Shown piece by piece: positions 16,843-24,177 of a DNA stretch of 58,153 bases (the stretch's first letter is position 1; every line of letters begins with the position of its first letter). The DNA lies in the NCBI GenBank assembly GCA_039630345.1, contig JBCNVD010000035.1:1-58153 (forward strand). The letters are read 5' to 3'. A program made the translations under genes and the position numbers. This DNA is from Aquificaceae bacterium (GTDB taxonomy: Bacteria; Aquificota; Aquificia; Aquificales; Aquificaceae). Under the pieces are notes generated by a model. It searched no databases, was not told where the DNA came from, and was given only the letters and a program-made list of their open reading frames with translations.

Positions 16843-18177
16843 ATGAAGCTATTTGGACTTTCCTTGGCAATATTAGCCCTTGCAATGGCGCAGGATTATC
16901 ATCAAGCAGCCTGCACCGCAACTGTTAGCACGGCAGAGGAGCTAAGAAATGCCGTAAACGAAGCACCAGGCAGGTCAGCCGATACTGTGGTTTGCATAAG
17001 ACCAGGCACCATACGCCTAACTGGAGGACTTGCAGAGCTTGCTGTTGCTCCTTCATACTCAGCTACCTCACCAGGGTGCACCAGAAACCTGATTATAAGA
17101 CCAGCAGGTGGAACCGTAATTTTAGAGAGCGACAGGGGTTATGTTATTGACATCAATAAAAGCGCATGCACTACAGATACTGGCACTGTTAGAATAGAGG
17201 GCATAACCTTTAGAAACACCTCAAACAACAGGGGCAGTGGAGGAGGTGCTTTAAGAATAAACGCAGATAACATAGAACTCATAAGAAATGCGTTTTTAAA
17301 CAACATAGCGGACAACTTCGGCGGGGCAGTAAATATCACGGTAGGCAGGAGAGCATTTATCTTTAGCAACCTCTTTGCAAACAATCAGGTCAACAGGTCC
17401 CCAAGTCCAACCAATGCAGTAGGTGGCGGTATGTATATTCGTCTTGGCGCTGCTTCAGCTTTTGTGGTAAATAACACCTTTGTCAATAACAGAGTCCCAA
17501 ATAGAGGCGGGGGACTTTTTGTGCTTCTTAACGAAAATGCTTCAACTGTCTCTATAAGCAACAATATCTTTTGGCAAAACGAAGCACGCGAAGGTGGGGC
17601 TGACGGCGATGACTTATTTGTGGATAGAGGCTCTGCAAACGGCACTACAGAGCTCTTTAACAACCTCTTTACGACAGGTCCTTCCATAGACTTCTCAAGC
17701 GCCCCAAGAACTGAAAAGGTTGCATTCTCAGACCGTCCAACTGCACCCTACAGCGCAGGTCAAAATATTCAGCAAGACCCAAGATTTGTCTCAGCAAGCG
17801 ACTTTAGACTAACCGCAGGCTCACCTGCGATAGATAGAGGGGATAATGGCAGAATAGGCGGTCTTGGTGATCTGGACCTTGACGGCAACCCAAGGGTGGT
17901 AGATGGCGATAGAAACGGCAGTGCTATAGTTGACATGGGTGCATACGAGTTTAGACCTGACGCTGGCGGTGGTGCTGGAGGTGGTGGCACAGGCGGTGGT
18001 GGAACCGGTGGCAGTGGTGGAACCGCAGGTGGTGGCACTACAGGTGGTGGCACGGCCGGCGCAGGTAGCACAAGCTCTGGCGGCGGTGGCGGCGGTTGCA
18101 ACGCAGGTTATGGCTTTTCCACATTCTTTGCGCTCTTTGGGGCTCTCTTTGCCCTTGCAAGACGCTTAAGGAAATAA
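16843..18177 (+). CDS. secreted beta-helix / choice-of-anchor Q-like surface protein with Gly/Thr linker and GGC-TM-basic C-terminal anchor
   Basis: Signal peptide; F.NN...GG(A/G) repeats; DFRL..GSPAID.G...DLDGNPR...DMGAYE; ends GGGGGGCNAG-hydrophobic-RRLRK. Confidence 0.85.
   Translation: MKLFGLSLAILALAMAQDYHQAACTATVSTAEELRNAVNEAPGRSADTVVCIRPGTIRLTGGLAELAVAPSYSATSPGCTRNLIIRPAGGTVILESDRGYVIDINKSACTTDTGTVRIEGITFRNTSNNRGSGGGALRINADNIELIRNAFLNNIADNFGGAVNITVGRRAFIFSNLFANNQVNRSPSPTNAVGGGMYIRLGAASAFVVNNTFVNNRVPNRGGGLFVLLNENASTVSISNNIFWQNEAREGGADGDDLFVDRGSANGTTELFNNLFTTGPSIDFSSAPRTEKVAFSDRPTAPYSAGQNIQQDPRFVSASDFRLTAGSPAIDRGDNGRIGGLGDLDLDGNPRVVDGDRNGSAIVDMGAYEFRPDAGGGAGGGGTGGGGTGGSGGTAGGGTTGGGTAGAGSTSSGGGGGGCNAGYGFSTFFALFGALFALARRLRK
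17964..18096 (+). repeat. imperfect GGN-rich coding repeat (Gly/Thr linker)
   Basis: Repeated GGTGGTGGCAC-like units encoding GGGT/GGGA. Confidence 0.8.
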
Positions 18178-21312: not shown

Positions 21313-22308
21313 ATGGACTGGGAAAAGACACTTTATGAGATACACTTAAAAGCATTAGAGTATAAAGAGCTCTTGGATGAAGAAGCTCTTACTATCCTAA
21401 GTGCCCCTATAGAGCTCTTGCCATATTTGGTGCATCTTGCACAGAAAGTTAAGTTAGCCTTTCATAAACCCGGAGAATATGAATTTTGCTCTATAATCAA
21501 TGCAAAAAGCGGGGCATGTTCTGAAGATTGCGGATTCTGCGCTCAATCAAAGTTTTATAAAACTCCAATAAATGTCTATCCTTTAGTTCCGAAAGAAGAA
21601 CTCATAGAAGGGGCAGAAAGAGGCGTTGAATTTAGCGCAAACAGATACTGCATGGTCCTTAGCGGAAAGGCGGCAACTTATGAAGAGATTCTAAAGCTAT
21701 CAGAAGGGGCAAAGGAAATAAAACAAAAGGGTATTCCTATAAGGCTATGTGTATCCGCGGGAACCATCGGGGAAAAGGAGCTTGAGATTCTAAAAGTGTC
21801 AGGCGTTGAGAGGATAAATCACAACCTTGAGACCTCAGAGAGGTTTTTCCCGAACGTTGTTACCACTCACACATGGAGATCGAGATTCGAAACCATAAAG
21901 AGAATCAAAGAGGCTGGATTATCAACCTGTTGCGGGGGGATATTTGGAATGGGTGAAACCCCTGAGGATAGAGTAAGTCTTGCAAAAACCTACAGAGAGC
22001 TTGAGGTTGATTCAATACCTCTTAATTTCATCATGCCGATAAAGGGCACTCCAATGGAGAGAGCTCCGGGAATAAGCGCCACAGACGCAATAAAGGTTAT
22101 TGCGATGTTTAGATTCACCAACCCCAAAGCCCAGCTAAGACTATGTGGGGGAAGAGAGGCAACGCTTGGGGATTTTCACGCTATGGCGATGTTTATGGTC
22201 AATGCAATGATGGTAGGAGGATACCTAACAAGAGCAGGCAGGGACTTTAAAAAGGATATCAGATTAATAAACGAACTTAATGGAAATATATTAAGGGATT
22301 CTTATTAA
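21313..22308 (+). CDS. bioB: biotin synthase
   Basis: NAKSGACSEDCGFCAQS, NHNLETS, CCGGIFGMGE, SIPLN, GYLT. Confidence 0.96.
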   Translation: MDWEKTLYEIHLKALEYKELLDEEALTILSAPIELLPYLVHLAQKVKLAFHKPGEYEFCSIINAKSGACSEDCGFCAQSKFYKTPINVYPLVPKEELIEGAERGVEFSANRYCMVLSGKAATYEEILKLSEGAKEIKQKGIPIRLCVSAGTIGEKELEILKVSGVERINHNLETSERFFPNVVTTHTWRSRFETIKRIKEAGLSTCCGGIFGMGETPEDRVSLAKTYRELEVDSIPLNFIMPIKGTPMERAPGISATDAIKVIAMFRFTNPKAQLRLCGGREATLGDFHAMAMFMVNAMMVGGYLTRAGRDFKKDIRLINELNGNILRDSY

Positions 22309-22322
22309 GTTTATATATAGCA

Positions 22323-22466
22323 AATTGTCACGTGACAATTCATGAAACCCAGATTTATCAGGGGTTTCGTAAGCTCTGCCTTGATTAAATTGTCACATTT
22401 TTGTCACATATCAGTGGCTAAATCTTATCTAAAGTGTGACAAAACTGTGACAAAAGTGTGACAAAA
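22323..22466. repeat. array of 7 GTGACAA/TTGTCAC motifs; candidate oriC or other protein-binding platform
   Basis: Palindrome AATTGTCACGTGACAATT (22323-22340); TTGTCACA at 22390 and 22401; TGTGACAAAA at 22435, 22446, 22457. The repeats are certain; the function is inferred. Confidence 0.85.
22342..22370. other. imperfect inverted repeat (possible bioB terminator or nucleoid-protein site)
   Basis: ATGAAACCC-N11-GGGTTTCGT; contains TATCAG-N4-TT resembling an IHF-type site. Confidence 0.4.
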
Positions 22467-22471
22467 CTTCC

Positions 22472-22505
22472 GGGGGGTAGTGGGGGGCTTAGCCCCCCAC
22501 GCTTT
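22472..22505 (+). repeat. GTAG-hairpin dispersed repeat (REP-like), copy 2
   Basis: GGGGGGTAGTGGGGGG-CTTAG-CCCCCCACGCTTT; inverted homologue of 16750-16782. Confidence 0.75.
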
Positions 22506-22524: not shown

Positions 22525-22597
22525 TCCGGGGTAGCTCAACCGGCAGAGCAGGCGGCTGTTAACCGTCAGGTTGGGGGTTCGAGTCCCTCCCCCGGAG
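22525..22597 (+). tRNA. tRNA-Asn (GTT), CCA not encoded
   Basis: Cloverleaf: acceptor TCCGGGG/CCCCGGA, D stem GCTC/GAGC, anticodon arm GGCGG-CTGTTAA-CCGTC, T loop TTCGAGT, discriminator G. Confidence 0.97.
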
Positions 22598-22606
22598 CTT
22601 TGAGCA

Positions 22607-23158
22607 ATGATTGAGTTAAAGGGCGTTACTATTCCTGTAGTCCAGGTTAATGTAAAGTCGAGAGTATCTGTTGAGGAGCTGGTATCTTTTTTGCGTGAGA
22701 AGCTATCTGGTAAGCTCTTTGATGGTTTTCACATCCTTATAAAGTCAGACGGGCATTTATCCCAGGAGGAGCTGTCAAGAGTTTATAGCCAGATAAGTTT
22801 GCCTTCTGTTTTATCAAGAGAGGCAAAAGATAGTCAAAGACTTTTAATACTTCATCAGATTTTAAGAGCGGGCACAAAAATAGAGCATAACGGGGACATT
22901 TTGGTGCTTGGGGATGTAAACAAAGACGCACAGCTTATTGCAACGGGTAACATCATCGTAATTGGCAGGTTAAGGGGGGTTGCTTTTGCAGGTGCTCTTG
23001 GTGATGAGAGCTGTGTGGTGGTTTCTACTATTATGGAGCCTCAGCATATAAGAATAGGTAAAAAGATAGCTATTATGGATGATTTAGATAGAATGTCACC
23101 AGGATATCCTGAAATGGCAAGAGTTGAGGGTGATGGTATAATTTTAGAAAAGGTATGA
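22607..23158 (+). CDS. minC: septum site-determining protein MinC
   Basis: LRAG..IEH.GD..VLGDVN..A...A.GNI.V.G.LRG...AG; first gene of minCDE. Confidence 0.93.
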   Translation: MIELKGVTIPVVQVNVKSRVSVEELVSFLREKLSGKLFDGFHILIKSDGHLSQEELSRVYSQISLPSVLSREAKDSQRLLILHQILRAGTKIEHNGDILVLGDVNKDAQLIATGNIIVIGRLRGVAFAGALGDESCVVVSTIMEPQHIRIGKKIAIMDDLDRMSPGYPEMARVEGDGIILEKV

Positions 23159-23940
23159 CAAAAGTTATTGTTATAACCTCCGGAAAGGGGGGAGTTGGAA
23201 AAACAACCATAACTGCAAATCTCTCTGTCGAGCTTGCGCTAAGGGGTAAAAGGGTATTGTGTATAGATGCGGATATAGGTCTTAGAAATCTTGATATGAT
23301 CCTTGGTCTTGAAAACAGGATCGTTTACGATGTGCTTGATGTACTTGAATCAAGAGTTCCGCTCAGTAAAGCCCTGGTAAGGGACAAAAGAGGTCTTCAG
23401 CTTTGGCTTTTGCCAGCAAATCAGACCAAGAACAAGGACGCGGTTGACGAAAACTCCTGGAACCGCATGATAAGAGATGCGTCTGAAGATGGTTCTTTTG
23501 ACTACATTATGATAGACTGCCCTGCCGGTATAGAGCAGGGATTTAGGATAGCCGTTGGTCCTTCACAGCAGGCTCTTGTTGTTGTAAATCCTGAGGTTTC
23601 TTCTGTAAGGGACGCAGATAGAATTATTGGTCTTTTGGAAAATATGGGTAAAACCAAATACCAGCTAATTATCAATAGAATAAGATGGGATAGCGTTAAA
23701 AGGGGAGAGATGCTGTCAGTAAGCGATGTGGTTGATATTTTAAAAGCCCCCCTTATAGGAGTAGTTCCGGATGAACCAAAGCTGGTGGATTACACCAACA
23801 GAGGAGAGCCAATAGTTTTTTCAAAGTTACCAATATCAAGTGCTATTAAGGACATAGCAGCAAGGCTGGATGGTGAAGCACGCCAGATGATATTTCACGG
23901 CGATAGAAAGAGTATTTTTGACAAGCTATTAGGAAGGTGA
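23155..23940 (+). CDS. minD: septum site-determining ATPase MinD
   Basis: TSGKGGVGKTT, DIGLRNLD, PAGIEQG, SSVRDADR, C-terminal amphipathic SIFDKLLG. Confidence 0.97.
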   Translation: MTKVIVITSGKGGVGKTTITANLSVELALRGKRVLCIDADIGLRNLDMILGLENRIVYDVLDVLESRVPLSKALVRDKRGLQLWLLPANQTKNKDAVDENSWNRMIRDASEDGSFDYIMIDCPAGIEQGFRIAVGPSQQALVVVNPEVSSVRDADRIIGLLENMGKTKYQLIINRIRWDSVKRGEMLSVSDVVDILKAPLIGVVPDEPKLVDYTNRGEPIVFSKLPISSAIKDIAARLDGEARQMIFHGDRKSIFDKLLGR

Positions 23941-23946
23941 TTTGAT

Positions 23947-24177
23947 ATGCTTAGGTTTTTTTCAGGTAGAAGTAAGGAACAAGCTAAAAATAGGTTGATG
24001 CTGGTTTTGTCTTATGAAAGATTGGGTATTTCTCCTAACCTTCTATTTCAGTTGAAGCAAGATCTTGTAGGTGTTTTTCAAAAGTATCCTCAATTTGATT
24101 CGGTTAACATAGAGGTTGAGATAAAAAATCAGGATAGGACTTCAGAGCTCTGGATAAGTATTCCATTCAGGCAATAA
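23947..24177 (+). CDS. minE: cell division topological specificity factor MinE
   Basis: AKNRL.LVL..ER; position after minD. Confidence 0.9.
   Translation: MLRFFSGRSKEQAKNRLMLVLSYERLGISPNLLFQLKQDLVGVFQKYPQFDSVNIEVEIKNQDRTSELWISIPFRQ

Follow-up and report, generated by a model that had tools for sequence, protein, structure and literature searches.

The array of GTGACAA repeats that lies between bioB and a tRNA-Asn gene is, with a probability of about 0.9, the chromosomal replication origin (oriC) of a genus of Aquificaceae, and its repeats, of the form WTTGTCACA, are predicted from their sequence to be that genus's own DnaA boxes. The repeats and their phasing, their conservation in a second species, a switch in strand asymmetry at the site and residue changes in DnaA were observed directly. 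A sequence-only reading of this DNA had proposed that an oriC lies here, apart from dnaA and with a box peculiar to the lineage. We now find this proposal backed, because four independent lines support it: the skew switch, an anatomy and a linkage to bioB shared with relatives, a published 9-mer, and changes in the DnaA recognition helix.

The genome analyzed (G000; 1.16 Mb in 41 contigs, 96% complete) belongs to a genus, g1, whose only other genome is G001. The array stands on contig C29; the window is the whole 58,153-nucleotide stretch under analysis.

The array and its surroundings

Seven copies of GTGACAA occupy about 140 bp of intergenic DNA (22325-22464), and make up 7 of the 9 copies in the window and 7 of the 45 in the genome. 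Across the 41 contigs, no further two copies are spaced by 200 bp or less; the genome-wide check on clustering that had been suggested thus leaves this array as the sole cluster. No other 7-mer of the genome, homopolymers aside, is as clustered as GTGACAA (Poisson, about 2e-15). Every coordinate described earlier was verified: the seven copies, the head-to-head pair, the 11-bp spacings, and the 26-bp spacer that separates TTGTCACA at 22390 and 22401 from TGTGACAAAA at 22435, 22446 and 22457. The head-to-head pair forms a perfect 18-bp palindrome (22323-22340) in this genome, but the perfect form is absent from G001, where the right half carries one change. To the left, the AT-rich stretch that had been noticed corresponds to 22256-22322, overlaps the last codons of bioB and is 79% A+T, a value equalled by 90 of 231,275 windows of that length, this window having been chosen post hoc. 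The IHF-like site between palindrome and arrays is also there, at 22356-22368, with one mismatch to the IHF consensus. Array and intergenic position were thus borne out, but not the size of the gap: its non-coding part measures 216 bp rather than 298, because it also holds a tRNA-Asn gene (22525-22598) that had been missed.

TTTGTCACA matches TTATCCACA at 6 of 9 positions, as previously stated, yet it is just one mismatch away from the relaxed consensus TTWTNCACA. The genome has, as expected of a bacterial oriC, a unique intergenic cluster of seven DnaA-box-like 9-mers adjoined by an AT-rich predicted unwinding element. The features are as follows.

21313..22308, + strand: bioB, biotin synthase (NCBIfam TIGR00433 over cut-off; synteny)
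22256..22322, no strand: AT-rich tract, predicted DNA-unwinding element (79% A+T; 70% in G001)
22324..22332, + strand: predicted DnaA box 1, ATTGTCACG, unwinding-proximal (identical in G001; orientation as in sister genera)
22331..22339, - strand: overlapping opposite predicted box, CGTGACAAT on the + strand (position of the box listed for A. aeolicus; one change in G001)
22344..22368, no strand: imperfect palindrome with IHF-consensus match, predicted IHF/HU bending site (one mismatch)
22389..22408, + strand: two predicted DnaA boxes, ATTGTCACA and TTTGTCACA, 11-bp period (the first 65 bp from box 1)
22409..22434, no strand: spacer between the opposed arrays, 26 bp (25 bp in G001), sequence unconserved
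22435..22465, - strand: three predicted DnaA boxes, TTTGTCACA on the - strand, 11-bp period
22480..22500, + strand: G/C-rich hairpin then a T run, terminator-like (shuffle mean 0.4)
22525..22598, + strand: tRNA-Asn(GTT), intact
22607..24177, + strand: minC, minD and minE, neighbors outside the element (NCBIfam TIGR01222, TIGR01968 and TIGR01215 over cut-off)

Three HU/IHF-family genes are present in the genome. The hairpin sits between the array and the tRNA promoter, and may stop bioB transcripts that have passed the origin. The minCDE genes do adjoin the site, but their link with it is incidental, since the tRNA-Asn and the gene behind it are conserved in members of the family that lack the array. 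Elsewhere in the window, 16843-18177 is higher in G+C than the DNA around it and encodes a protein that looks secreted, has a choice-of-anchor Q domain and carries a glycine-rich tail.

Relatives' arrays and strand asymmetry

The array recurs in G001 at the same place after bioB, where the contig ends at the array, and all 54 box bases are identical, compared with 50 of 88 spacer bases. Conservation, which had been proposed as a check, goes no further at the level of letters: the exact TGTGACAA pair at 11 bp occurs in none of the other 59 relatives, and no array lies upstream of tRNA-Asn in the 17 other relatives whose region was read, so that the element is genus-specific in sequence. The full array pattern was found in no metagenome contig and in a single genome contig, L092, whose letters are those of L004 and which was counted once; protein searches returned no further genus members beyond the two DnaA types of the genus.

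Intergenic box arrays are nevertheless present in other Aquificales. Pattern searches, followed by delimitation by eye, placed them in 29 of 60 relatives. The captured boxes number 9 to 16 and mostly form two groups that face opposite ways; there are IHF-like spacers, the 11-bp period is frequent, and the end box often stands 52 to 55 bp from the next. Their consensus tracks clades: TTATCCACA in family f3 and the sole f2 genome, TTTTCCACA/TTATCCACA in Aquifex-type genera, AATTTCACA in genera g2, g7, g10 and g12 (g3 being mixed), and WTTGTCACA in g1. A DnaA tree nests g1, whose branch is long (1.38), inside the AATTTCACA clade (support 100/99). As in G000, the g12 arrays directly follow bioB in three of four genomes (L202:1149-1790, L203:1667-2304 and L248:330-1000); the array of the fourth, G035, was unmatched by the patterns used. 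For Hydrogenobacter thermophilus, a row in the table of PMC8287927 puts the unwinding module close to position 1800, at a low score; this placement may be mistaken.

The arrays of G057 and G015 coincide with the coordinates of published origin predictions, as given in rows of PMC8287927 Table S1. The DnaA C-terminus of G015 is that of PDB 1L8Q. The G015 array opens with AT-rich DNA, which is followed by TGTGACAAA, by an IHF-like spacer and by two boxes at an 11-bp period, and it aligns with 22310-22410. Moreover, the A. aeolicus row of that table (Pelliciari 2021) gives AAACAGTGT (3'-5'), that is, TGTGACAAA, as the predicted unwinding-proximal (downstream) DnaA box, and the corresponding region aligns with 22310-22370 of the window.

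A skew minimum or coverage peak at a canonical DnaA-box cluster elsewhere had been named as an observation that would speak against the site, and no such cluster was found in this assembly: boxes within one mismatch of TTATCCACA never exceed two per 300 bp, there is no AATTTCACA-type pair, and the 187-bp gap before dnaA holds no box cluster, canonical or other. The array gap ranks first of 166 gaps for box-like 6-mers. Another origin could lie in unassembled DNA, because the assembly is in 41 contigs and 96% complete. A single degenerate box-like stretch opens the gap before dnaA in both genomes (L002:1081-1100), possibly, though weakly, an autoregulation site.

Strand asymmetry was followed as the T-A skew of fourfold-degenerate sites after correction for gene strand; most contigs are uniform in this skew, and its sign varies from contig to contig. 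On C29, which has 51 gene boundaries, it reverses, with the cumulative minimum exactly at one of them, the bioB stop at 22308, and in a blind change-point scan of the 31 contigs with at least 12 genes C29 came out top, with a score of 603 (0 of 2,000 permutations). C13 carries an opposite switch that is diffuse and weaker (score 171, 0 of 2,000 permutations), and C20 another weaker one (p 0.005); the C13 switch, near 11.5 kb, is a candidate terminus. The asymmetry switches with origin polarity for T-A, but G-C does not flip: the GC-skew flip expected at an oriC is absent after gene-strand correction (p 0.72). Of the G/T richness that had seemed to begin right of the site, the G part does not begin there, raw GC skew being positive on both sides; T-A skew flips. 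Raw GC skew was discarded as an origin signal; it is uninformative because gene direction drives it.

A skew switch alone cannot separate an origin from a terminus, and we therefore calibrated its polarity over about 200 kb on each side of the arrays of three relatives. At canonical-box arrays T-A shifts in the same direction as in G000 in G057 (0 of 5,000) and in G015 (p 0.018), while the syntenic relative G021 has no T-A switch at its array (p 0.34). G015 also shifts C-richer, and G057 has a weakly opposite G-C shift. The T-rich strand of G000 is also C-rich genome-wide (C 208,317, G 201,428), so that its inferred leading strand is C-rich; leading strands are usually G-rich. A clear, replication-type asymmetry with T and C enriched on one strand is unusual for Aquificota; the surveys PMC2099444 and PMC4070872, where they touch on A. 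aeolicus, describe its skew as very weak.

The even spread of genes over the two strands of G000 (463 versus 459) counts against the origin reading. Other orientation signals did not decide: the KOPS-like GGGNAGGG occurs 34 times on the T-rich and 44 times on the A-rich strand, tRNAs are oriented 14 versus 11, and no 16S from which rRNA orientation could be read is assembled. A dif-like pattern scan was too loose and was discarded with its hundreds of matches. Read depth, available at contig level from one metagenome run that is possibly the source sample, is 76-85 at the site, about 10% above the 71-73 of long contigs at C13; these values are not copy number and were left out of the evidence.

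DnaA and the alternatives

The single dnaA of the genome lies on contig C36 (L002:1273-2445). Its product exceeds the Pfam Bac_DnaA cut-off and scores 221 bits against NCBIfam DnaA, below the cut-off of 344. It has the family's Walker A and B motifs, sensor 1, arginine finger and domain IV helix-turn-helix, and in alignment with E. coli DnaA it keeps K178, D236, D269, R285, R399, H434 and T435, with Q in place of P423. Domain IV specificity residues, whose inspection had been advised, do carry a genus-specific change, D433G in the recognition helix: it occurs in 2 of 30 DnaA proteins, both from g1, the other 28 having D (27) or N (1), and in none of 25 further homologues, all of which keep the DH dyad. 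According to the parts of PMC5043019 and 10.1101/2020.07.08.193532 that bear on this, residues 399, 423, 432-435 and 438-439 read box bases, D433 being a base-reading residue in the former. Of the 14 captured g1 9-mers, 13 have G at box position 4, the fourteenth being the G/C hairpin, versus 5 of 383 elsewhere. It is likely that G at this position goes with D433G. The link is suggestive and amounts to one event rather than statistical covariation, because it concerns a single lineage of two species, whose long branch carries many other changes.

The same two proteins lack the sensor-2 arginine (E. coli R334), which is Ile in both and Arg in the other 28, and they alone of the 30 carry R281K and R245K, both positions being R in 28 of 28 others. 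The section of PMC5742627 concerned with R334 presents it as needed for ATP hydrolysis by DnaA and not for initiation complexes; a DnaA without R334, and with R281K and R245K, is predicted to hydrolyze ATP poorly.

Four other explanations were weighed against an origin. Since a skew switch marks origin and terminus alike, the site could be a fork trap or chromosome-resolution site whose repeats bind a terminus protein, with the origin at the C13 switch. If the usual rule of a G-rich leading strand applied, the polarity here would fit a terminus, and on C26 the ribosomal-protein genes do occupy the A-rich strand. However, the T-A polarity is that found at the canonical DnaA-box arrays of G057 and G015, the anatomy fits the published origin rows, and C13 lacks a box array and has a diffuse switch; in addition, the two species do not share the same central palindrome, as they would be expected to at a recombinase site, and FtsK-family matches are short and partial only. 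We regard a terminus as very unlikely. Still less probable, in our view, is an attachment region of a tyrosine integrase beside tRNA-Asn, of which the array would be the relic arm-type sites and IHF site, as the sequence-only reading had allowed. In its favor, TGTGACAAAAnTGTGACAA occurs at the end of Pfam-confirmed tyrosine integrases at 12 of the 44 viral loci that carry the 19-bp pair (phmmer matched 11 of the 12 integrases at these pairs), an IHF-like site and a tRNA are at hand, and the repeats have the period of about 11 bp typical of arms. But no integrase, element or cargo lies nearby, the array is 5' of one intact tRNA whose end is not duplicated, and G000 and G001 each have a sole tyrosine recombinase, Xer-like and 284 aa long, which is encoded on a different contig and in G000 adjoins trmD-like and ribosomal-protein genes. 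All 54 box bases are kept, moreover, between species whose DnaA proteins are 82% identical, and a relic leaves unexplained both the skew switch and the absence of another origin candidate.

The earlier suggestion of PhoB/OmpR-type repeats, here an operator array controlling tRNA-Asn-minCDE, draws on the 11-bp direct repeats, on the three OmpR-family genes of G000 and on TGTCA at an 11-bp period, which resembles the pho box. The repeat of such an operator is to be expected before other genes of the regulon, pstS among them, but the only exact intergenic TGTCA-N6-TGTCA pairs are those of this array, the 9 other TGTGACAA being all intragenic, and the pstS promoter has no such repeat; tRNA-Asn does without an upstream array in the 17 other relatives, and the skew switch is unaccounted for. 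We give this explanation hardly any weight. Least credible of the four is a parS-like centromere: there is an 18-bp palindrome, which shares TCACGTGA with the parS core, and parS sites lie near origins, but no ParB N-terminal domain (PF02195) was found in this 96% complete genome, the palindrome is imperfect in G001, and 5 of the 7 copies are unpaired direct repeats.

Further repeat arrays were seen at other loci. TTAAC-like repeats at a period of about 11 bp precede pstS on C17 (L263), a probable pho box distinct from the array motif. On large phage contigs (L328, L338, L347, L350, L351, L357 and L371), GTGACAA is densely arrayed in several places, at 27-35 copies per 3 kb, in the manner of homologous-repeat origins or promoters. 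In G058, a CRISPR-like repeat array has a leader (L043:1500-900, - strand) that holds a TGAGACAA pair with an 11-bp period and IHF-like sites. On a 164-kb replicon (G054 C2), a TGTAACA/TGTTACA array with an 11-bp period (L085:2000-2110) directly precedes an ATPase gene of ParM-type appearance; with longer direct repeats upstream, it is a candidate plasmid centromere.

Proposed initiation at the array, and known origins

If the array is oriC, initiation might proceed as follows, by analogy with E. coli and Thermotoga. ATP-DnaA would occupy two box pairs, 22324-22339 and 22389-22408; a bend made by IHF or HU in the spacer at 22344-22368 would join the two pairs, which stand 65 bp, or about six helical turns, apart, box to box; and the joined complex would open the AT-rich tract at the bioB end. 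A second DnaA oligomer, seated on the opposed triplet at 22435-22465, would aid helicase loading for the second fork. Having lost the sensor-2 arginine, this DnaA would hydrolyze ATP poorly and still be able to initiate. The DnaA-trio pattern, which the passages of PMC10721633 on the basal unwinding system describe as part of it, is present beside many relatives' arrays and absent in both g1 genomes: by eye, 4 of 6 triplets fit, with a longest run of 2, short of the at least three trios within 16 bp of a DnaA box set out for that system in PMC8287927.

It is conceivable, although we hold this only tentatively and at clearly less than even odds, that the genus has re-coded and simplified its own initiation, with a 140-bp origin, D433G switching box position 4 from T to G, a DnaA without R334 (and with R281K and R245K) that is not switched off by ATP hydrolysis, and a pyrimidine-rich leading strand; once-per-cycle initiation would therefore be enforced by some other control.

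Species-specific DnaA boxes are known from Thermotoga, from Caulobacter (the W-box) and from Epsilonproteobacteria, so that the kind of system is not new; a literature search, outside DoriC and the subscription journals, found nothing relevant on the TTTGTCACA box or on the clade. Aquifex DnaA is a structural model for bacterial initiators, and Aquificota origins are hard to place because the genomes are almost without skew. Here, a compact probable origin is placed by an independent signal, one that origin finders relying on TTATCCACA would miss. Together with its relatives it provides graded natural box spellings across one order (TTATCCACA, TTTTCCACA, AATTTCACA, WTTGTCACA), offers a single-residue hypothesis pairing D433 with box position 4, and includes a wild DnaA without the sensor-2 arginine, which bears on the need of ATP hydrolysis by DnaA for once-per-cycle control.

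The closest counterpart is the predicted oriC of A. aeolicus VF5 (DoriC ORI97017010; basal unwinding system row NC_000918 166854-166906 in PMC8287927 Table S1). Both have an AT-rich tract, a TGTGACAAA box, an IHF-like spacer, an 11-bp box pair and a distal opposed 11-bp array, and both lie far from dnaA. They differ in that A. aeolicus has the variant 9-mer once, its other boxes being of TTTTCCACA/TTATCCACA type (16 captured), whereas all boxes of G000 are WTTGTCACA; in size, about 450 bp versus about 140 bp; and in the poor trios, D433G and R334I of G000.

In E. coli, oriC consists of a DUE, R1, an IHF region and opposed left and right DnaA-box arrays, and the minimal oriC of Thermotoga maritima has 149 bp and five boxes, with HU between boxes 1 and 2, in the accounts that PMC10325909 and PMC13643167 give of them. 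On those accounts, both share with the array an unwinding element, a proximal box, a bending-protein spacer and two opposed phased arrays, and the array is close in size to the T. maritima minimal origin. Unlike that of E. coli, it uses another box sequence and its post-spacer arrays run opposite to the left array; E. coli DnaA needs for its inactivation the sensor-2 arginine that DnaA of G000 lacks. Epsilonproteobacteria, whose boxes as characterized in PMC5043019 have T at position 5 alongside altered residues 435, 438 and 439, resemble g1 in combining a lineage-specific T5 box with changes at the start of DnaA helix 5, but they keep T4 and the D433-H434 dyad, whereas g1 has G4 and G433. Phage integrase arm-type sites, finally, offer the same identical 11-bp direct pair, at those 12 of 44 viral loci beside integrase genes; unlike them, the array has no integrase, is conserved across species and lies on a replichore boundary.
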